This document shows positions 84 through 53,941 of a stretch of 64,000 nt of DNA, in pieces (the stretch's first letter is position 1; every line of letters starts with the position of its first letter). The stretch lies in the IMG/VR virus record IMGVR_UViG_3300009159_000033; one strand, 5' to 3'. Both the position numbers and the translations under genes were made by a program. Origin of the DNA: a virus. The notes under the pieces are model-generated. The model had not been told where the DNA came from. It worked only from the letters and a program-made list of their open reading frames with translations, and made no database searches.

Positions 84-269
84 ATGAGAATAATAAGATC
101 TATTCCGCCGTGGTCCAGAGCACAGCTCTGGACCAATGGTTGGACTTGTAGCACTTTTAGAACAGTCTACTGCGTGTATTCATGTAATAGAACAGTGATA
201 CAGCCTTGGTCAGTTAACTGGTCACATAGTGAAGTTATTTCCACTACAGCATGGAGGGAATACCGATGA
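84..269 (+). CDS. Array unit 1, 61 aa (MRIIRS...AWREYR)
   Basis: ATG at 84 after AAGGGGTG; TGA overlaps the next ATG. Confidence 0.75.
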   Translation: MRIIRSIPPWSRAQLWTNGWTCSTFRTVYCVYSCNRTVIQPWSVNWSHSEVISTTAWREYR

Positions 270-475
270 TAAGAAGAAGTATAGATTTTGCGGGGTCTGA
301 GTCTTGGGCCGAGAATTTTAATACATCTATTTGGATGCCATTTGCACCTCAATATGTGGCTGTGGCTTGGTCTCAAAATTATGCTAAATCTTGGTCTGGG
401 ATTGGGTCTTGGGCTAGGTCTGGTGCTTGGGTTAAAAATAGAATTGAATCTTGGCATTGGAGGGATAACTTATGA
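266..475 (+). CDS. Array unit 2, 69 aa (MIRRSIDF...HWRDNL)
   Basis: GGAGGG upstream; ATGA overlaps at both ends; 8 Trp. Confidence 0.85.
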   Translation: MIRRSIDFAGSESWAENFNTSIWMPFAPQYVAVAWSQNYAKSWSGIGSWARSGAWVKNRIESWHWRDNL

Positions 476-624
476 TAAGAAAAACAATATATTCTCAAAC
501 TTATTCTTGGGCTTTGTCTTACCCTACAGCTTGTCACTGGATGTTTACTTTTAAAAGCTGGTCTAGGTCTTGGATATGGAAAAAGCATTGTCCTAAGTCT
601 AAATCTTGGAGAAATAACTTATGA
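472..624 (+). CDS. Array unit 3, 50 aa (MIRKTIYSQ...SWRNNL)
   Basis: Translated by hand (absent from the ORF track); open from junction to junction. Confidence 0.85.
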   Translation: MIRKTIYSQTYSWALSYPTACHWMFTFKSWSRSWIWKKHCPKSKSWRNNL

Positions 625-854
625 TAAGAAAAATATCATATAGAGGGTCATACTCTTGGAGAGGTGCTATGGATAAGCCTTGGGGCGAAACTGAATCTGC
701 AGCTTGGTCAGATTCTAGGTACAGATTTGGAAATTGGAGTTTAACTAGGGCTTGGGCAAAGTCTTGGTCTTCTTTTTCTTCTTGGGGTTGGGTTTGGTCG
801 GCGACAGCTGTTATGTCTTCACCTACATCCGAGTCATGGGGAGAAGACACATGA
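621..854 (+). CDS. Array unit 4, 77 aa (MIRKISYR...SWGEDT)
   Basis: ORF track; ATGA overlaps. Confidence 0.85.
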   Translation: MIRKISYRGSYSWRGAMDKPWGETESAAWSDSRYRFGNWSLTRAWAKSWSSFSSWGWVWSATAVMSSPTSESWGEDT

Positions 855-1051
855 TAAGAAAAGTATTGGCAAATTCTCAAACTGAAGCTTGGTCCATAGG
901 TCTTTCTTGGTGCCATCATCACTCTTGGGCTGCGCCTTGGAGTTGGAACTGGCATTTAAGTCAAACTTACACTAAGTGCTGGCCTCAAGCTAGACTGCGT
1001 TCTAAATTCGTAGTCGATTCCACCCCTAGATCTTGGAAGCACCACATATGA
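851..1051 (+). CDS. Array unit 5, 66 aa (MIRKVLAN...SWKHHI)
   Basis: Internal ATG of track ORF 752..1051 at the conserved junction. Confidence 0.85.
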   Translation: MIRKVLANSQTEAWSIGLSWCHHHSWAAPWSWNWHLSQTYTKCWPQARLRSKFVVDSTPRSWKHHI

Positions 1052-1230
1052 TAAAACGAACAATGAGAGAACCTGAAAAACTATCTCGTAACTGGGCTGG
1101 GTCTGTGTACTGGTCTGCGTCTTTGTTATCCGGTTCTGGATCTCTAGGCTGGCCCGGACGCTGGCATTACAGCTATGCGTGGAAATCTAGAAACTGGACC
1201 CTAGCTATTCTGCGAATAGGATGGAGATAA
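1048..1230 (+). CDS. Array unit 6, 60 aa (MIKRTMRE...IGWR)
   Basis: ATGA overlap at start; ends in TAA, 1 nt before the next ATG. Confidence 0.8.
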   Translation: MIKRTMREPEKLSRNWAGSVYWSASLLSGSGSLGWPGRWHYSYAWKSRNWTLAILRIGWR

Positions 1231-1231
1231 C

Positions 1232-1408
1232 ATGATAAGAAAAACATTAATAACTCCTAGATCAAGAGATTGGTCAGACTTGTTTTTATGGGGAACTTGC
1301 TTTACACGGAACTGGCACAGAGCCACCGCTACGCCTTCCGGAAAAGCTTGGTCCTACTTGTGGGTCTTTCCAAAACTCAGATCTAATTCTTGGAGTTCTT
1401 TCCGATGA
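1232..1408 (+). CDS. Array unit 7, 58 aa (MIRKTLIT...SWSSFR)
   Basis: Translated by hand; open from junction to junction. Confidence 0.85.
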   Translation: MIRKTLITPRSRDWSDLFLWGTCFTRNWHRATATPSGKAWSYLWVFPKLRSNSWSSFR

Positions 1409-1587
1409 TAAGAAGAAAAGCTTTTGGCCAATCTTTCTCTTGGTCTTTAGATACGAACATGTCTTGGTGTTTGGCTAAATATAGACCTTGGCCTACATGG
1501 GCTCATCTTTGGACAGAAGAATGGCGTATTGGCGGGTCTTGGGCTGAGGACAATATAGAATCTTCCTCTTGGAAAGGAGATATATGA
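1405..1587 (+). CDS. Array unit 8, 60 aa (MIRRKAFG...SWKGDI)
   Basis: ATGA overlaps; GGAG upstream. Confidence 0.85.
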   Translation: MIRRKAFGQSFSWSLDTNMSWCLAKYRPWPTWAHLWTEEWRIGGSWAEDNIESSSWKGDI

Positions 1588-1757
1588 TAAGAAAGCTAGC
1601 ACGGCCTAGAACTATAGCTTGGGCGGGATTTACGTGCAAGTCTGGGTGTTCTGAGAATTGGAGTTGGGTGTGCGAGGTTTGGCGTAGGTCCGACAATTAC
1701 TCTGTATGTTGGACTAAGTTTGGGTGTTGTTCTTGGGTATGGAGGAATAACACATGA
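1584..1757 (+). CDS. Array unit 9, 57 aa, 6 Cys (MIRKLARP...VWRNNT)
   Basis: ATGA overlaps; GGAAAGGAG upstream. Confidence 0.85.
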   Translation: MIRKLARPRTIAWAGFTCKSGCSENWSWVCEVWRRSDNYSVCWTKFGCCSWVWRNNT

Positions 1758-1930
1758 TAAGAAAAATGCGACCTGATTCTGGGGCTATGTCCCTTTCTTG
1801 GCATTGCTCTGCGTTTAGGTCTAAGTCTTGGGCTGAGTCTTGGCCCGGGATTAGGTCTTGGTCTTCGTTTATGATTTGGTCCTGGTCTTGGCACTGGGCT
1901 AGCTCTAGATCTTGGAAAGGACATATATGA
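1754..1930 (+). CDS. Array unit 10, 58 aa (MIRKMRPD...SWKGHI)
   Basis: Translated by hand; GGAGGA upstream; 9 Trp. Confidence 0.85.
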   Translation: MIRKMRPDSGAMSLSWHCSAFRSKSWAESWPGIRSWSSFMIWSWSWHWASSRSWKGHI

Positions 1931-2091
1931 TAAGAAAAATATGGTCTGGGTCTGGGTCTGAGTCTGGGTCTTGGTCTGAGTCTGGGGCTGAGTCTGGGTC
2001 TTGGCCTAGGTCTGGGTCTTGGTCTTGGCCTTGGTCTGTGCCTTGGTTTTGGTCTGGGTCTTGGTCTAAATCTTGGAAAGGGCGTATATGA
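1927..2091 (+). CDS. Array unit 11, 54 aa, near-pure (Ser-X)n repeat (MIRKIWSGSGSESGSW...SWKGRI)
   Basis: Translated by hand; TCT-NGG/GAG hexamer repeat; 10 Trp. Confidence 0.8.
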   Translation: MIRKIWSGSGSESGSWSESGAESGSWPRSGSWSWPWSVPWFWSGSWSKSWKGRI

Positions 2092-2279
2092 TAAGAAAAA
2101 CTTTAGCTATGGGAGGTTGTGCTTGGTCTACATCTCAACCTTCCGCTAGTGTTGACAATACAGACTTCGATATGCGAGAGCGTAGTGTTATTAATTTTTG
2201 TTGGACTAGGCTTCGTTGGAAATCTGTTAGCGGTCAAGATGGTGAAATTACTTCTTATTCTTGGAGCACCAGCACATGA
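2088..2279 (+). CDS. Array unit 12, 63 aa (MIRKTLAM...SWSTST)
   Basis: ATGA overlaps. Confidence 0.85.
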   Translation: MIRKTLAMGGCAWSTSQPSASVDNTDFDMRERSVINFCWTRLRWKSVSGQDGEITSYSWSTST

Positions 2280-2452
2280 TAAGAAAAACAAAATGTTTTG
2301 CTGCTACGACTTTTTCTCGGGATTGTGCTAGATCTTGGGATTGGACAGAAGAATGGCGTGAGTCTTGGTCTTGGTCTATGTCTAATTATGATTCTGGGTC
2401 TTGGACTAATACTTGGGTAAAGGCTAGGTGCTGGGGAAGGAATTCTCAATGA
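2276..2452 (+). CDS. Array unit 13, 58 aa (MIRKTKCF...CWGRNSQ)
   Basis: ATGA overlaps. Confidence 0.85.
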   Translation: MIRKTKCFAATTFSRDCARSWDWTEEWRESWSWSMSNYDSGSWTNTWVKARCWGRNSQ

Positions 2453-2634
2453 TAAGAAAAACAAATGCAGTAATCATCTCTGATGTTTGGAATTGCCAAC
2501 AGAAATGTTCGTGGTTTAATCAATGGGATCATTACGATTTAAAATCAGGTAACTGGTTTCGTGAGCGCACCCATAGCGATTTTGGTAGTTCCATATGGTA
2601 CAACCGTTCCCACTCTTGGAGAACAAATCAATGA
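2449..2634 (+). CDS. Array unit 14, 61 aa (MIRKTNAV...SWRTNQ)
   Basis: ATGA overlaps. Confidence 0.85.
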   Translation: MIRKTNAVIISDVWNCQQKCSWFNQWDHYDLKSGNWFRERTHSDFGSSIWYNRSHSWRTNQ

Positions 2635-2810
2635 GAACGATAATATCGTCAACACGGTCTAAAAATTGGACGATAGAAATGAAAAGGTCTACAACATCAA
2701 CTAACCCTTGGTCGCTTTCTCTGCACAGTTGTGCTGCTTGCTGGTCTTTGTGTCGTCTATTCTCTGAAGCTATTTGGGTTCGATCAAAGAGTTGGAGAAC
2801 AGACGCATGA
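2631..2810 (+). CDS. Array unit 15, 59 aa (MRTIISS...SWRTDA)
   Basis: ATGA overlaps; variant start resembling unit 1. Confidence 0.8.
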   Translation: MRTIISSTRSKNWTIEMKRSTTSTNPWSLSLHSCAACWSLCRLFSEAIWVRSKSWRTDA

Positions 2811-3022
2811 TAAGAAAGGTAGCCAGAATACATGCTAAGACCGGATCTTGGGACAACAGTTATGTCTGGTCTTCGTGGGGTGGCACACTTGTTAAAGGGC
2901 CAGGTGTTCCATTCTTTGGAGGCTGGGGTTCTGGCCCTGCATTTTCTAAAGTCTGGGCGCATCGTCACCTATGGTCTGACTATGGGGTTGCACTCTGGCC
3001 GTCACCTAGAAGGAGGAGGTAA
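2807..3022 (+). CDS. Array unit 16, 71 aa (MIRKVARI...PSPRRRR)
   Basis: ATGA at start; TAATG overlap at end after AGGAGGAGG. Confidence 0.85.
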   Translation: MIRKVARIHAKTGSWDNSYVWSSWGGTLVKGPGVPFFGGWGSGPAFSKVWAHRHLWSDYGVALWPSPRRRR

Positions 3023-3207
3023 TGATAAGAAGAACTAACTCATTTCCAGGAGCTCAATCTAAGTCTTTTACAGAAGCTATAGTTTGGAGTTACTCTTATC
3101 CAAGAAATCATTCTTGGTCTGCAAGTTGGAGAGTTCTTGTAGCCACAAGTAGATCAGAATCTTGGTCTCTTGACTGGACTACTTATTGGAAAGGAATGTT
3201 CCAATGA
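3022..3207 (+). CDS. Array unit 17, 61 aa (MIRRTNSF...YWKGMFQ)
   Basis: ORF track; strong RBS. Confidence 0.85.
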   Translation: MIRRTNSFPGAQSKSFTEAIVWSYSYPRNHSWSASWRVLVATSRSESWSLDWTTYWKGMFQ

Positions 3208-3395
3208 TAAGAAGAATACGATCTGCAAATTGTTCATGGGATACTAAACTCCCTTCTAAAGGTTGGCATAGAAATAGGATTTGGTCGTTGAGTAATCTCA
3301 ATGCAATGTCAAAATCCAGATTTGTAAACAATGCGTATTCAGGTGTATGGGCTATTAATAGCTCTGCAACTGAAAATTGGTCACAACAATTCTAA
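3204..3395 (+). CDS. Array unit 18, 63 aa (MIRRIRSA...NWSQQF), last unit
   Basis: ATGA overlap at start; ends in TAA; followed by an unrelated gene. Confidence 0.85.
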   Translation: MIRRIRSANCSWDTKLPSKGWHRNRIWSLSNLNAMSKSRFVNNAYSGVWAINSSATENWSQQF

Positions 3396-3413: not shown

Positions 3414-3707
3414 ATGGAAACTAAATCGTTCAGTCATATACCTTTCTTCACCAAACCCGAACTACTAAAAGCCAACTTGTTGGCAATCAATAGAGGTTAC
3501 AACCGCACTCTTAGCCCAGAGCTGCTAGCAGAACTGCCAGAAGACTTCATATTCCCAGTAAGCTTCAGCATGATTCATGAACATGCTGCAGGCAACTCAG
3601 TAGATCCGCACATGCGTTGCATCATAATCACAGGGCACAACTGTAAAGGAGTATTCTTAGATTGCGATATGAACATCTTTAAACAAATTAAAGAAAGAAA
3701 GGACTAA
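3414..3707 (+). CDS. Hypothetical protein
   Basis: 97-aa ORF, tightly packed with neighbours. Confidence 0.75.
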   Translation: METKSFSHIPFFTKPELLKANLLAINRGYNRTLSPELLAELPEDFIFPVSFSMIHEHAAGNSVDPHMRCIIITGHNCKGVFLDCDMNIFKQIKERKD

Positions 3708-3709
3708 AG

Positions 3710-3991
3710 ATGAGACTAACGATTGCTGTTACGGCCTATGGTAACATTGACCACGGGCAAAACCCAGAGAAACCCATTTGCGGTGCATGGCTTAAAGCCG
3801 ACACCATTGAAGAAATGAGAGCAAAAGTTCGAAAATGGCAATATGATGAAAATGTGGGGGCGGGCAACTGGGCACCTGCCCCCCTTTGGTTAGGTGACAA
3901 GCGTGTAGGATATATGTCCTACAATGGAAAAGTTTGGAAAAATAAATTAAGCAAGTCAAAAGTCATCGAAGTACCTGACTGGAAACTCTAA
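3710..3991 (+). CDS. Hypothetical phage protein
   Basis: 93-aa ORF, AAGGA upstream. Confidence 0.75.
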   Translation: MRLTIAVTAYGNIDHGQNPEKPICGAWLKADTIEEMRAKVRKWQYDENVGAGNWAPAPLWLGDKRVGYMSYNGKVWKNKLSKSKVIEVPDWKL

Positions 3992-5651: not shown

Positions 5652-5963
5652 ATGGAACTACACGGCGGGCCGGTCAAACGTAAACGAAGAAAACCCCCAG
5701 ATCAACTCTGGGTGCAATTCATGTCTGACGACGAAAAAGAGAAAGACAGAATTGAACAATGTCAAACTATCTCGTTGTCAGATGTTGGACTGCCTGTCCG
5801 TGTAGCTAACACGCTAGAAAACTATGGGCTATTGACTGTAGGGGATCTAGCTAAGCTAACTGTGGAAGACTTAGAAAGCATTCAAAATCTTGGAGAAGTT
5901 ACTATTGCACGCTGCACTAAGCTGTTAGATGAAATGCAGATACCCCATCGCCTTGGAGAATAA
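5652..5963 (+). CDS. Stand-alone RNA polymerase alpha subunit C-terminal domain protein
   Basis: LSDVGLPVRVANTLENYGLLTVGDLAKLTVEDLESIQNLGEVT matches the alpha-CTD helix-hairpin-helix consensus. Confidence 0.8.
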   Translation: MELHGGPVKRKRRKPPDQLWVQFMSDDEKEKDRIEQCQTISLSDVGLPVRVANTLENYGLLTVGDLAKLTVEDLESIQNLGEVTIARCTKLLDEMQIPHRLGE

Positions 5964-5973
5964 GGAAATACAC

Positions 5974-6744
5974 ATGAGCGAAATCTTAGTAGTAATTCCC
6001 ACTATCTTTAAAAACTCTTTTAAAGACAACCTATTAGATCAGCTGTGTGGTGACTCTTTAGTCAAACAAGTAGTAGTAGTAGATAATGGAAACTGTTTTG
6101 AGATACCTCCAGAAAAACAACAAGCATGGGCTAAAGTGCAACGTGTAGAAGCTGGCTGCAACTTAAACTGGCTTACCTCTTGTAACCTTGGAGCTGCTAT
6201 CACAATAGCACAACAAATTCCCTATGTCTGCTTCTTGAACGATGATGTTAAACTTTCAAATCCGTTTTTTAAAGAAATGTTAAAAACTTTTACTAACTGT
6301 AAAGATGCAGCAGTTGTAGTACCTAGGTATACTGGGTATTGTCCTACTGCAAAAGAACTTCGTAACGAAGCAGACTGGAAACCAGAGGAAAAAGAAAAAG
6401 TAGTAGGTTATGTAGATGGAACTTGCATGTTAATATCTTTGCAAACGCTTCAAACTATAGGGTTACTAGATCCAAGCTTTCAACCACCTGGCTGGGGAGC
6501 AGATCAAGATTATTCCTACAGAGTCAAATGCAAAGGCAAATCACTTTATGTTAGTTATCGTGCCATGCTTTGGCATGGAGAAGAAAACAAAGAAAAAGAT
6601 AACCGAGTTTATGGCGGCACTTCTGCTACAAAATTATATGGAAGTAAAGCTAATTGGCTATCTGCAGGCTGCCGACAAATGAATCATGATATGGATAAAA
6701 AGTATGGTAAAGACTGGAAAAGAATTCTTGAAATACAAGAATAA
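5974..6744 (+). CDS. Glycosyltransferase family 2 (GT-A fold)
   Basis: VVIPT, VVDNG, FLNDD (DxD-like), DGTCMLI, GADQDY. Confidence 0.8.
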   Translation: MSEILVVIPTIFKNSFKDNLLDQLCGDSLVKQVVVVDNGNCFEIPPEKQQAWAKVQRVEAGCNLNWLTSCNLGAAITIAQQIPYVCFLNDDVKLSNPFFKEMLKTFTNCKDAAVVVPRYTGYCPTAKELRNEADWKPEEKEKVVGYVDGTCMLISLQTLQTIGLLDPSFQPPGWGADQDYSYRVKCKGKSLYVSYRAMLWHGEENKEKDNRVYGGTSATKLYGSKANWLSAGCRQMNHDMDKKYGKDWKRILEIQE

Positions 6745-43018: not shown

Positions 43019-44314
43019 ATGAGTAATTCAGATGGGTCGATTGAACAGCAAATGAAGGCATCGTTGAGCAAGGCATCGGGTGTGCCAATTGCCACTCCTC
43101 CAGTTGCTCCCCCGGTTGCCCCTATTGTCACACCTTCAATCGCACCCCCAGTTGCAGCCCCCGGTGTTGTGCACATAGGTAACATCGCTGCAGCATTGAA
43201 TCCTGCTGCCCATAAGCAAGCAGCAACCCAAGTAGTGGTAAACGATGCCTTTCCTTATGATGTCGCATTTAACATGGCATTTCTGGGGTCTGGGCAGGGC
43301 GGTGCTCGCTTAGCCTCCAGCTTCTGGTCCTTAGGCTATAGACGAGTGGCCTTATTCAATACCGCAGAAAGCGACTTCCAAGGTTTACCCGATGAGATTC
43401 AGCGACACACGCTGCAATTGGGTGGGGCTGCAAAAGATGCAAGGTTTGCTGAACAAGCCATAAATGGGCACGAAGAGGAAATCTGGGATCTGTTGCAACG
43501 TTCATGGGGCAACGATGTGGACTATGGCTTAATCTGTGTTGGCCTAGGTGGTGGTACTGGCTCTGGTACTAGCGGTAAGCTGGTACAAGTGGCTAGAGAG
43601 TACTTAGAGTCAAAAGGCAAGCCACCCCGAGTTGGAGTGATAGCTTCAATTCCGGCTTTTACGGAAGGTCAGCAAGTATGTCGCAATGCAGTTACATCCT
43701 TCCAAAGATTAATGGAGCTCAAAGTAAGCCCATTAATCTTGATTGACAATGCACGCATTAACCAACTGTATCGCCCAGGCATGGCACAGCTGTACAATGT
43801 GGCTAATAGCACAGTCAGTCAGCTATTCCATTTGTTTAATCAATTGGCTGCGGTACATAGCCCTTTAATCACCTTTGATCGCAGTGAGCTAGCTCAGTTA
43901 CTGGATCATGGTATCTGTGTGATGGGTGCAGCCAGCTTACAAAACATCACTAGCCCTGCAGACATCTCTGCAGCGATTAGGGATCAGCTCACTAACAATG
44001 TGTTAGCTGAGGTGGATTTAAAGCAAGGCACCAAGGGTGCTTGTCTGTTCGTAGGTGATCAGCATCACTTGGACAGCCTCGGTTTAGAGTACTTTGATGC
44101 AGGGTTCACGCAAATGAATCGTACATTGAAGGGTGGTACTAGTGTGGTGCATAGGGGTGTGTACATTGGCTCGTCGCCTGGGTTACAAGCTTATGCTATG
44201 ATTAGTGATCTTAAGCCACCCTTGCCTACCTTGGCAAAGTTGGCAAAAGAAGCTAATATTTCCAAAAGTCAGCTGACCAGTGGGTTAGCTCAGTTCCTCG
44301 GTGTGAATGATTAG
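43019..44314 (+). CDS. Tubulin/FtsZ family GTPase (PhuZ/TubZ-like)
   Basis: FLGSGQGGARLA, NT..SD, GLGGGTGSG signature, LIDN; Pro/Ala-rich N-terminal extension. Confidence 0.88.
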   Translation: MSNSDGSIEQQMKASLSKASGVPIATPPVAPPVAPIVTPSIAPPVAAPGVVHIGNIAAALNPAAHKQAATQVVVNDAFPYDVAFNMAFLGSGQGGARLASSFWSLGYRRVALFNTAESDFQGLPDEIQRHTLQLGGAAKDARFAEQAINGHEEEIWDLLQRSWGNDVDYGLICVGLGGGTGSGTSGKLVQVAREYLESKGKPPRVGVIASIPAFTEGQQVCRNAVTSFQRLMELKVSPLILIDNARINQLYRPGMAQLYNVANSTVSQLFHLFNQLAAVHSPLITFDRSELAQLLDHGICVMGAASLQNITSPADISAAIRDQLTNNVLAEVDLKQGTKGACLFVGDQHHLDSLGLEYFDAGFTQMNRTLKGGTSVVHRGVYIGSSPGLQAYAMISDLKPPLPTLAKLAKEANISKSQLTSGLAQFLGVND

Positions 44315-52618: not shown

Positions 52619-53941
52619 ATGACTACTGATGAAGCTTTGGATCAGCTTATAACTCAACTTCAAGGAAAAACAGCTAAAGTGATGGTGGTAGGTCTCGGCT
52701 ACGCTGGCCTACCTCTTGCTGAGTGTATTGCCAGTGCTGGGTTTGATGTCATTGGTTACGACATAGACCCAAACAAGGTTGAAATCCTACAACAAGGGAA
52801 AAGCTACTTAGAAACCATTCCTGCAGCTAGGGTGCAAAGCTTATTAAACACAGGTAAGTTTAAAGCAACCTCAGACATTGCTACTGCAGAACCTTGTGCC
52901 GTCTATTGGATTTGTGTCCCCACTCCTTTGGTAAATGGTGCCCCTACTCTAGATATCTTATATAATGCGATCAATGCAGTAAGCACAGTAGCTAAAACAC
53001 CTTTCTTGGTTGTGGTCTCTAGTACATCCTTCCCCGGAACCACTCGGTCTATGGGCTTGAGCATTCTAGAAGAAGATAGGAAAGAGGATCGCAACTTCTT
53101 TCTTGCCTTTAGCCAAGAAAGAGAAGATCCAGGCAATACCAAATTTACCACGAGAACGCTTCCTAGAGTCTTTGGAGCACTCAATGACTCTTCGGAAAAA
53201 GTGACTTCAGTTTTGTTTAATCAGCTGTTTGATGAGGTGCATCAAGCAAGCTCCATGGAAGCAGCAGAAGCCTCTAAAATGATGGAGAATGTCTATCGTG
53301 CGGTAAACATCGCACTTGCAAACGAATGGGCTGATATTTGTAATAAATTGGGTTTGGATGTGTGGGAGGTGATTAAACTCGCAGCAACCAAGCCTTTTGG
53401 CTTTCAAGCGTTTTATCCTGGTCCGGGTGTTGGTGGTCATTGCATCCCTGTGGACCCTTATTACCTTCTTCAAAAGCTGCAGAGCATGGGTTCAGACGCT
53501 GAGCTTATTAGTCTTGCGTGTGAACTGAACAAAAAGAGGCCAAGCGTAATCGTAGGCAAGCTAGTGGAGTTCTTAGGACTTTACACCCACCGCTTTGATG
53601 AAAGCTTTCCTATATTATTGATTGGGATAAGCTACAAAAAAAATGTAGGAGATCTTCGAGGTTCGCCAGCGCTTGAAATCCTTGATTTGCTCTGCAGAGA
53701 AGGTTTTGATGTAACATGGTATGATCCTTTAGTAGATAAGACAGACTTGGCTCTAGAATTATTGAGAGAAACTACTCTCAGCTCAATACTATTAAAGGAG
53801 CAAGCTGTCTGCATTATCCTTTCGGACCATGACATAATTGACTGGGATATGGTGTTAGCCCACTCCAACTTTATATTTGATACTAAGAACAAATATGCAA
53901 AGTGTGATGGGGTAAACCCGTTCAAGCTGATAAGACTTTAG
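52619..53941 (+). CDS. UDP-N-acetylhexosamine/UDP-glucose dehydrogenase family protein (WecC/WbpA/TviB-like)
   Basis: VVGLGYAGLPLA, ICVPTP, ASKMMENVYR, GPGVGGHCIPVDP, YKKNVGDLR. Confidence 0.92.
   Translation: MTTDEALDQLITQLQGKTAKVMVVGLGYAGLPLAECIASAGFDVIGYDIDPNKVEILQQGKSYLETIPAARVQSLLNTGKFKATSDIATAEPCAVYWICVPTPLVNGAPTLDILYNAINAVSTVAKTPFLVVVSSTSFPGTTRSMGLSILEEDRKEDRNFFLAFSQEREDPGNTKFTTRTLPRVFGALNDSSEKVTSVLFNQLFDEVHQASSMEAAEASKMMENVYRAVNIALANEWADICNKLGLDVWEVIKLAATKPFGFQAFYPGPGVGGHCIPVDPYYLLQKLQSMGSDAELISLACELNKKRPSVIVGKLVEFLGLYTHRFDESFPILLIGISYKKNVGDLRGSPALEILDLLCREGFDVTWYDPLVDKTDLALELLRETTLSSILLKEQAVCIILSDHDIIDWDMVLAHSNFIFDTKNKYAKCDGVNPFKLIRL

Follow-up and report, generated by a model that had tools for sequence, protein, structure and literature searches.

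A back-to-back array of putative tryptophan- and serine-rich microprotein genes beside an Sm-fold gene in an uncultured lake phage

Why would a phage carry 18 short open reading frames (ORFs) packed end to end, each different from the others and yet all of one odd composition? The question is raised by positions 84–3395 of a 64,000-nt window (the whole stretch of DNA analysed) from the IMG/VR virus record IMGVR_UViG_3300009159_000033. The initial annotation described here an array of translationally coupled genes for hypervariable, tryptophan (Trp)- and serine (Ser)-rich microproteins; the 18 back-to-back ORFs of 50–77 amino acids (aa), with start-to-start distances of 2 modulo 3 in 16 of 17 cases, were reproduced at these positions. 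The array consists of open frames with start signals, belongs to a multigene family that expands and contracts, conserves Trp specifically, has unit bodies of hexamer origin and lies in an Sm-fold neighbourhood. Judged from the sequence, its units are very likely genuine, separately translated microprotein genes.

Junctions and coding evidence

Spacing between unit starts varies from 149 to 230 nt. Fifteen of the 17 junctions are ATGA stop/start overlaps; the exceptions are a TAATG overlap between units 16 and 17 and a 1-nt spacer between units 6 and 7. ATGATAA is the opening of 16 of the 18 units, and every unit has an ATG with a Shine–Dalgarno-like motif of the GGAG, GGAGG or AAGG type 6–13 nt before it. 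The junction extends over about 30 nt and reads TCNNNNTGGAGG, 5–7 nt, ATGATAAGAAAAA; across 123 units from eight genomes the consensus is TC..tTGGAGg, 5–7 nt, ATGATAAGAAAAA. This one stretch encodes the penultimate Trp of the upstream unit, contains the ribosome-binding site, provides two successive stops (TGA-TAA) and starts the following unit. Since these signals are combined in one place, ribosomes would be expected to terminate and re-initiate there; the near-equal stoichiometry proposed in the initial annotation is a possibility suggested by this architecture. Outside the array, the 172.7-kb record contains no ATGATAAGA junction, and scans for promoters and terminators inside the array gave results not meaningfully above chance. 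Production of a single polyprotein by read-through or frameshifting was rejected because every junction has TGA-TAA in the upstream frame and lacks a slippery site.

Calculated against dinucleotide shuffles, stop depletion in the frame of the named units is complete (0 stops in 1016 interior codons vs 53 expected; joint P about 1e-26), and the other five frames contain 30–91 stops each. TGG occurs 125 times in the named frame vs 6 and 26 times in the other forward frames. The bodies are indeed Trp- and Ser-rich and acid-poor, with Trp at 11.4 % (7.3 times its share in the phage's long genes), Ser at 16.8 % (2.7 times) and Asp plus Glu at 5.6 %.

These counts bear directly on the idea that the locus is a non-coding DNA or RNA repeat (iterons, a protein-sponge RNA, sites of packaging or recombination), with the open frames arising as by-products of a stop-free hexamer. 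In favour of such a repeat, none of the six frames is closed in a pure (TCTTGG)n tract, synonymous positions of the junction (ATA, AGA, AAA) are conserved and four-fold sites show unusual conservation. Yet only a single frame is stop-free and TGG is concentrated in it; the frame relation is always preserved while the spacing varies; no inverted repeats were found in the array; no Rfam covariance model matched it (best E-values 0.42 and 0.84, far under gathering scores); and junction RNA structure was not above that of shuffled sequence. A non-coding origin of the pattern is thus extremely unlikely.

Hexamer origin, turnover and selection

The distances between Trp residues are overwhelmingly even numbers. 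Trp-Trp spacings of 2, 4, 6, 8 and 10 residues occur 101, 150, 138, 79 and 90 times, respectively (558 in total), vs 23, 19, 18, 16 and 12 times (88 in total) for spacings of 3, 5, 7, 9 and 11. In many units every Trp lies in one register, which is rich in Trp, Arg, Gly and Lys; Ser accounts for 28 % of the other. Among the Ser codons of the array 62 % are TCT, vs 30 % in the phage's long genes. Unit 11 contains a period-6 tract of 20.8 copies at 1943–2067 (Tandem Repeats Finder), and the distances between repeat copies are multiples of 6. Most of the 18 diverged units can no longer be recognised as repeats. Even Trp spacing, register, TCT bias and period-6 tracts therefore point to descent of the bodies from a frame-neutral (NCT-NGG)n hexamer.

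Repeat purity is inversely related to the number of lineages sharing a unit (Spearman -0.58, p 0.011). Units of purer repeat occur in fewer lineages, which fits a series running from young units close to the repeat to old ones that are degenerate and conserved, and this suggests gene birth from a coding microsatellite. New units may arise by expansion of an (NCT-NGG)n tract between two junctions, and whole units may also be duplicated through their junctions; older units would then degenerate as point substitutions accumulate, with selection preserving the open frame and the Trp residues. An exact 19-nt patch, TTGGACAGAAGAATGGCGT (encoding W-T-E-E-W-R), is found at 1509–1527 and 2341–2359 in units 8 and 13, which are otherwise 34 % identical; it suggests gene conversion, a shared recent segment or occasional exchange between units. 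No reverse transcriptase (RVT_1) match indicative of a diversity-generating retroelement was found in the record. Between them, the locus and its relatives offer small genes all the way from a raw hexamer repeat to conserved orthologues on which purifying selection acts, so that microprotein birth from a coding microsatellite becomes directly testable in a virus.

Homologous arrays were sought with a pattern of two junctions 149–179 nt apart and with the 105-aa protein encoded upstream. They were found in six further lineages (L081, the L085 group, L086, L087, L088 and L090) with 7 to about 30 units each and variable content, and also on ENA lake metagenome contigs. The 123 units of eight genomes fall into 66 groups at 50 % identity. 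All 18 units of the present array belong to different groups, with about 15–33 % identity to unit 1; the near-identical tandem copies of a recent amplification are absent from it. Units 1, 2, 6, 7, 8 and 13–18 form a conserved backbone with lineage-specific insertions between them.

Units of this family are rare. Unit 8 retrieved one cluster among 5.8 billion proteins, and a profile of all 123 units retrieved only 18 representatives among 1.84 billion proteins, all of the same kind. Ten units searched against Pfam and PHROGs gave no match (Pfam E up to 1) save one PHROG at E 0.07; unit 16 yielded no usable match when its features were searched in the ESM Atlas, and full-text literature searches returned no published description of such arrays. 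Similar ATGA-coupled arrays are present in more distant lake phages, for example L120, L147, L154, L163 and L169. The 51 distant units are of similar composition, with 317 even vs 51 odd Trp spacings, and share an N-terminal consensus of about 14 residues (M-I-L-K-A-N-S-F-S-x-x-x-C-W) and a C-terminal S-W-S-K-N-I. The array is a member of a wider, undescribed family of Ser/Trp ‘register’ microproteins in uncultured lake phages, comprising more than 170 units here with 11–13 % Trp in a two-residue register and linked to a phage Sm-fold protein. Separately, another distant array (L209:2045-5775) has units that start M-K-L-I-R-R-A-N, consist of almost pure Ser-Trp/Gly/Arg repeats, lie on both sides of an Sm-like gene and have conserved short spacers between them rather than ATGA overlaps.

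Orthologous units in two related genomes, L076 and L074 (the latter of the L085 type), keep frame and length and align almost without gaps. Flanking genes are 94–99 % identical between genomes whose orthologous units are 58–100 % identical. Pooled Nei–Gojobori ratios of nonsynonymous to synonymous substitution (dN/dS) are 0.32 and 0.59. For units 6, 7, 8, 14 and 16 the ratio is 0.11–0.35 in 9 of 10 comparisons, the exception being unit 6 vs L074 (0.64); with unit 1 added, it is 0.11–0.45 in 11 of 12. At aligned orthologous positions Trp is 94.8 % identical vs 74.3 % for other residues, although TGG has no synonymous codon. Protein-level selection on diversified paralogues, as the initial annotation had argued, is supported by the open frames, the kept lengths, the conservation of Trp and the several units with dN/dS of about 0.1–0.35.

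All units lie on the plus strand. Within the backbone, unit 1 (84–269; 61 aa) starts MRIIRS, ends at the TGA of an ATGA overlap and has orthologues 59–67 % identical (dN/dS 0.31–0.45), and unit 2 (266–475; 69 aa) is 100 % identical to its L076 and 61 % identical to its L074 counterpart. Unit 6 (1048–1230; 60 aa; dN/dS 0.29–0.64) starts MIKR and ends in TAA before the 1-nt spacer to unit 7 (1232–1408; 58 aa; dN/dS 0.24–0.26). Unit 8 (1405–1587; 60 aa; dN/dS 0.19–0.25) is the most widely shared unit type, with 6 invariant Trp columns across 6 lineages. The remaining backbone runs from unit 13 (2276–2452; 58 aa; repeat family D14), which carries the second copy of the 19-nt patch, through unit 14 (2449–2634; 61 aa; dN/dS 0.18–0.35), unit 15 (2631–2810; 59 aa; MRTIIS start) and unit 16 (2807–3022; 71 aa), the most conserved of all (93–94 % identical; dN/dS 0.11–0.29) and closed by the TAA of the TAATG junction, to unit 17 (3022–3207; 61 aa) and the last, unit 18 (3204–3395; 63 aa), which also ends in TAA. 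Of the others, units 3 (472–624; 50 aa) and 4 (621–854; 77 aa) are lineage-specific, all 10 Trp of the latter lying in one register; unit 5 (851–1051; 66 aa) has a dN/dS of 1.05 vs L074; unit 9 (1584–1757; 57 aa) is Cys-rich and 63 % identical to an L077 unit; unit 10 (1754–1930; 58 aa) is of intermediate hexamer purity; unit 11 (1927–2091; 54 aa) is an almost pure (TCT-NGG)n tract (hexamer purity 0.85); and unit 12 (2088–2279; 63 aa), with an orthologue in L091, has the lowest Trp content of all. Automated annotation had been expected to hide the array by missing or mis-starting units. Public gene calls on the sister contig L091 list most of the units and leave three uncalled, so this expectation is borne out only in part.

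The Sm-fold neighbour and a candidate role for the peptides

Directly upstream of the array and on the same strand lies a 105-aa gene whose 3′ end occupies positions 1–71 of the window (full gene L003:1710-2024:-, beginning 246 nt left of the window); it ends at 71 and unit 1 starts at 84. The protein was modelled as a monomer by AlphaFold2 (AF2) with a predicted local distance difference test (pLDDT) score of 86, and its top Foldseek matches in the Protein Data Bank (PDB) are all Sm/LSm chains, with target template-modelling scores (TM-scores) of 0.6–0.8; Pfam matches to DUF6897 and DUF2642 fall below their cut-offs. This gene, itself preceded by a terminator-like hairpin, is the left boundary of the array, and inspection of the region left of the window, as the initial annotation had advised, revealed no more units.

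The Sm-fold protein is 69–99 % identical, and located directly before the arrays, in 6 related lineages. It has more than 170 homologues at about 60–70 % identity. In three ENA lineages no Trp/Ser ORF was found near the homologue; among 16 further IMG/VR loci several lineages have Trp/Ser ORFs downstream of the Sm gene, those of L120 being ATGA-coupled. When ORFs were sought within 4 kb at 34 distant metagenome loci with enough downstream sequence, units were found downstream of the Sm gene in 8, and at least 3 units in 7 of those 8. Second blocks of units occur at L086:3587-6914 and L088:1411-5620, upstream of a conserved trio of DUF6745, 108-aa and Sm-like genes, so that the family brackets the trio there. 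Prediction of a complex between the Sm-like protein and the unit-8 family scored 0.00 and was counted neither for nor against binding. One distant relative with the Sm-like gene also encodes, at L108:11843-12919 (minus strand), a protein with a prepilin N-methylation motif and a DUF1559 (SBP_bac_10) domain. This combination is typical of Planctomycetota and Verrucomicrobiota and may hint at the hosts of the wider group of phages.

The record of 172,719 bp has an estimated completeness of 84 %, which implies a phage genome of about 200 kb, and all of its long ORFs lie on one strand. Among the encoded proteins are an SbcCD-type nuclease, helicases, a tubulin/FtsZ-like protein and a family A polymerase that contains a uracil-DNA glycosylase-superfamily domain. 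A megablast search with 20 kb found no cultured-phage relative, and the polymerase is less than 30 % identical to that of any cultured phage. No tRNA genes were found in the record and hence no tRNA-Trp. Downstream of the array, the next gene starts at 3414 and is not coupled to it, as its own start is 19 nt away. The second gene after the array (93 aa; 3710–3991) is also fast-evolving (dN/dS 0.3–0.5), being 54–57 % identical between genomes in which the neighbouring genes are 94–100 % identical. A free-standing 102-aa protein resembling the C-terminal domain of the RNA polymerase alpha subunit (alpha-CTD; PF03118, E 2.4e-11) is encoded 2.2 kb downstream at 5652–5960; it may mimic the host alpha-CTD or compete with it. 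This gene and the many small genes nearby suggest an early host-takeover region, from which the array would be expressed as an early operon.

Several further genes were recorded in the window. The polymerase gene (20615–24106) encodes 1163 aa, with the N-terminal uracil-DNA glycosylase-superfamily domain (PF03167, residues 144–295) placed before the exonuclease and polymerase domains. A tubulin/FtsZ-family GTPase gene lies at 43019–44314 (PF00091, E 7.6e-11). A UDP-glucose/GDP-mannose dehydrogenase (52619–53941) and a family 2 glycosyltransferase (5929–6744) may serve DNA or cell-surface sugar modification.

The setting weighs on a further reading, in which the peptides are basic internal virion or DNA-condensing proteins that are packaged through a shared N-terminal motif and injected with the DNA. 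The T4 internal proteins (IP genes) offer an analogy, being polymorphic and carrying a capsid targeting sequence, and the units likewise are small, basic and fast-evolving with mainly an N-terminal motif in common. The array nevertheless adjoins early/regulatory and replication genes rather than head genes, no prohead-protease-type cleavage motif follows the N-terminus, and 18 species far exceed any internal-protein set known to us. This reading is very improbable.

The products have a mean net charge of +4.9. None has a signal peptide, and none of the 123 units exceeds a Kyte–Doolittle value of 1.6 over a 19-residue window (top window 1.00), as a membrane helix would. Their beta-amphipathic moment hardly exceeds the value obtained with shuffled sequence. 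Cationic and Trp-rich composition, together with a short conserved N-terminus before a hypervariable Ser/Cys/Trp-rich body, would suit precursors of modified, secreted or membrane-active peptides, either with Ser/Cys/Trp cores like those of ribosomally synthesised and post-translationally modified peptides (RiPPs) or of a Trp/Arg-rich antimicrobial type. The conserved N-terminus is only M-I-R-K here and at most about 14 residues in the distant arrays, however, and a long conserved leader of the RiPP precursor type (about 20 aa or more, for example prochlorosin) was not found. Likewise, no radical SAM, LanC (LANC_like) or YcaO gene was found in the record, and no protease or exporter gene nearby; a search for DUF4135 (LanM-dehydratase) was uninformative as its control matched nothing. 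Peptide precursors of this kind are decidedly improbable, and the suggestion that the units are substrates of a modifying enzyme found no support.

The explanation proposed for the locus as a whole joins a coding block, hexamer birth and nucleic-acid-binding peptides with a Trp/Arg face. It is held tentatively, at somewhat less than an even chance, and its functional part is a guess, as are the decoy, inhibitor, membrane, RNA-binding and amyloid roles raised in the initial annotation. The array would be a polycistronic block of 18 microprotein genes, each with its own Shine–Dalgarno motif and ATG, next to an Sm-fold gene. Its products would be basic, Trp-studded, Ser-alternating peptides free of membrane segments or a confidently predicted fold. 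They may be accessory factors of early host takeover that bind nucleic acid, most likely RNA, via a Trp/Arg/Lys face and probably act beside the Sm-like RNA-binding protein, with host conflict driving the turnover of units. If the peptides do bind RNA or counter host defences, they would represent a new class of phage effector; either way, the locus shows that neither automatic annotation nor the family databases have a family to which these phage microproteins could be assigned.

Several findings weigh against this explanation. The link to the Sm-like gene is recurrent rather than obligatory, because 26 of the 34 distant loci carry that gene without any array; conservation of the gene far exceeds that of the array; and the blocks upstream of the DUF6745 gene in L086 and L088 mean that adjacency may be historical and not functional. 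Structure prediction, as advised in the initial annotation, gave no confident fold for the unit-8 family (AF2 pLDDT 52) and only a weak N-terminal hairpin. The dN/dS evidence is divided: low for units 1, 6, 7, 8, 14 and 16, the ratio is about 1–1.3 for units 2, 5, 13, 17 and 18 vs L074 and about 1 for roughly half of the units, which evolve almost neutrally save for Trp and stop avoidance. Divergence by codon position from L085 is flat in the array (0.156, 0.158 and 0.170) vs 0.11, 0.06 and 0.29 in flanking genes, and at four-fold sites, in the same comparison, the array has diverged less than its flanks (0.13 vs 0.31); against L081 the two agree (0.11 and 0.13). Given the flat codon-position and low four-fold divergence, much of the sequence beyond Trp and stop avoidance is under weak constraint as protein, is held by constraint on the nucleotides or was recently exchanged between lineages. 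For the four-fold pattern itself, recent segment exchange, nucleotide-level constraint and bias from comparing only recognisable orthologues are each possible.

Such near-neutrality invites the view that the peptides are irrelevant and that translation alone matters, whether to hold ribosomes on a long leader and so spare the early genes downstream from Rho-dependent polarity, or to make expression of these genes dependent on charged tRNA-Trp. Gapless packing, the lack of internal terminators or promoters above chance and the 126 Trp codons in the block agree with it, as do the nearly flat codon-position divergence and the neutral half of the units. It does not account for the preferential conservation of Trp (though any change of TGG alters the protein), for the several units with dN/dS of 0.11–0.35 or for unit lengths and identities kept across lineages, and the next gene, with its own start, is not coupled to the array. 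The view is improbable.

The main rival to the nucleic-acid-binding explanation is a counter-defence or host-takeover ‘accordion’ of diversified small inhibitors or decoys, turned over in an arms race with variable host targets (nuclease, toxin, protease) and independent of the Sm-like protein. Fast turnover of units between lineages with nearly identical flanking genes, the many units with dN/dS of 1 or more and the position of the array among small early-type genes all favour it, and segmental amplification of tifA in phage T4 is a documented precedent (PMC9391042). On the other hand, the units share one odd composition and register rather than diverse folds, no PADLOC, Pfam or PHROG anti-defence family was matched at the levels searched, and the copies are old and diverged (about 25 % identity) rather than recently amplified. 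The rival is unlikely but has to be taken seriously.

A bolder extension of the preferred explanation is more doubtful still. It treats the locus as a ‘gene nursery’ in which (TCT-NGG)n inside a fixed coupling scaffold spawns genes, some of them captured as interchangeable trans-acting Trp/Arg ‘tails’ or ligands of the phage Sm-ring RNA-binding protein. Were it true, the locus would encode a viral ribonucleoprotein system whose peptide component can be diversified and for which no counterpart has been described.

Comparison with known systems

Trp-Arg ladder modules such as the thrombospondin type 1 repeat and the WSXWS motif of cytokine receptors resemble the units in their length of about 60 residues and in being rich in Trp, Ser, Arg and sometimes Cys. 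Unlike the i, i+3 spacing of WSXWS, the spacing of Trp in the array is even (2, 4, 6 and so on), spacing 3 being rare (23 cases); no Pfam match to these families was obtained at E up to 1, and the AF2 model gave no confident fold.

Eukaryotic SmB, SmD1, SmD3 and LSm4 carry tails of Arg-Gly dipeptide repeats. The array and its neighbour likewise bring together an Sm fold and a basic, low-complexity, dipeptide-repeat segment. In the phage, however, the peptide is a separate gene product of Ser-Trp/Arg/Gly rather than Arg-Gly type, and its physical association with the Sm-fold protein is putative.

In T-even phages the LSm-like early proteins GoF, MotB.1 and Frd.2 have been described, and the GoF mutant D25Y is linked to higher reporter mRNA stability (Kim et al. 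2025, PMC12152347). They share with the neighbour of the array a small LSm fold encoded in an early region; the comparison concerns this neighbour by fold and not the array, and Trp/Ser microprotein genes have not been reported beside the T-even proteins (PMC12152347).

In its mode of multiplication the array resembles T4 tifA, a small counter-defence gene for a ToxN inhibitor that undergoes segmental amplification (Srikant, Guegler and Laub 2022, PMC9391042). Common to both are the tandem multiplication of a small accessory phage gene, short-repeat recombination and a plastic region of the genome. The tifA copies arose recently, do not differ from one another and have a known function, whereas the array units are old, about 25 % identical and partly born from a microsatellite (PMC9391042 for tifA).

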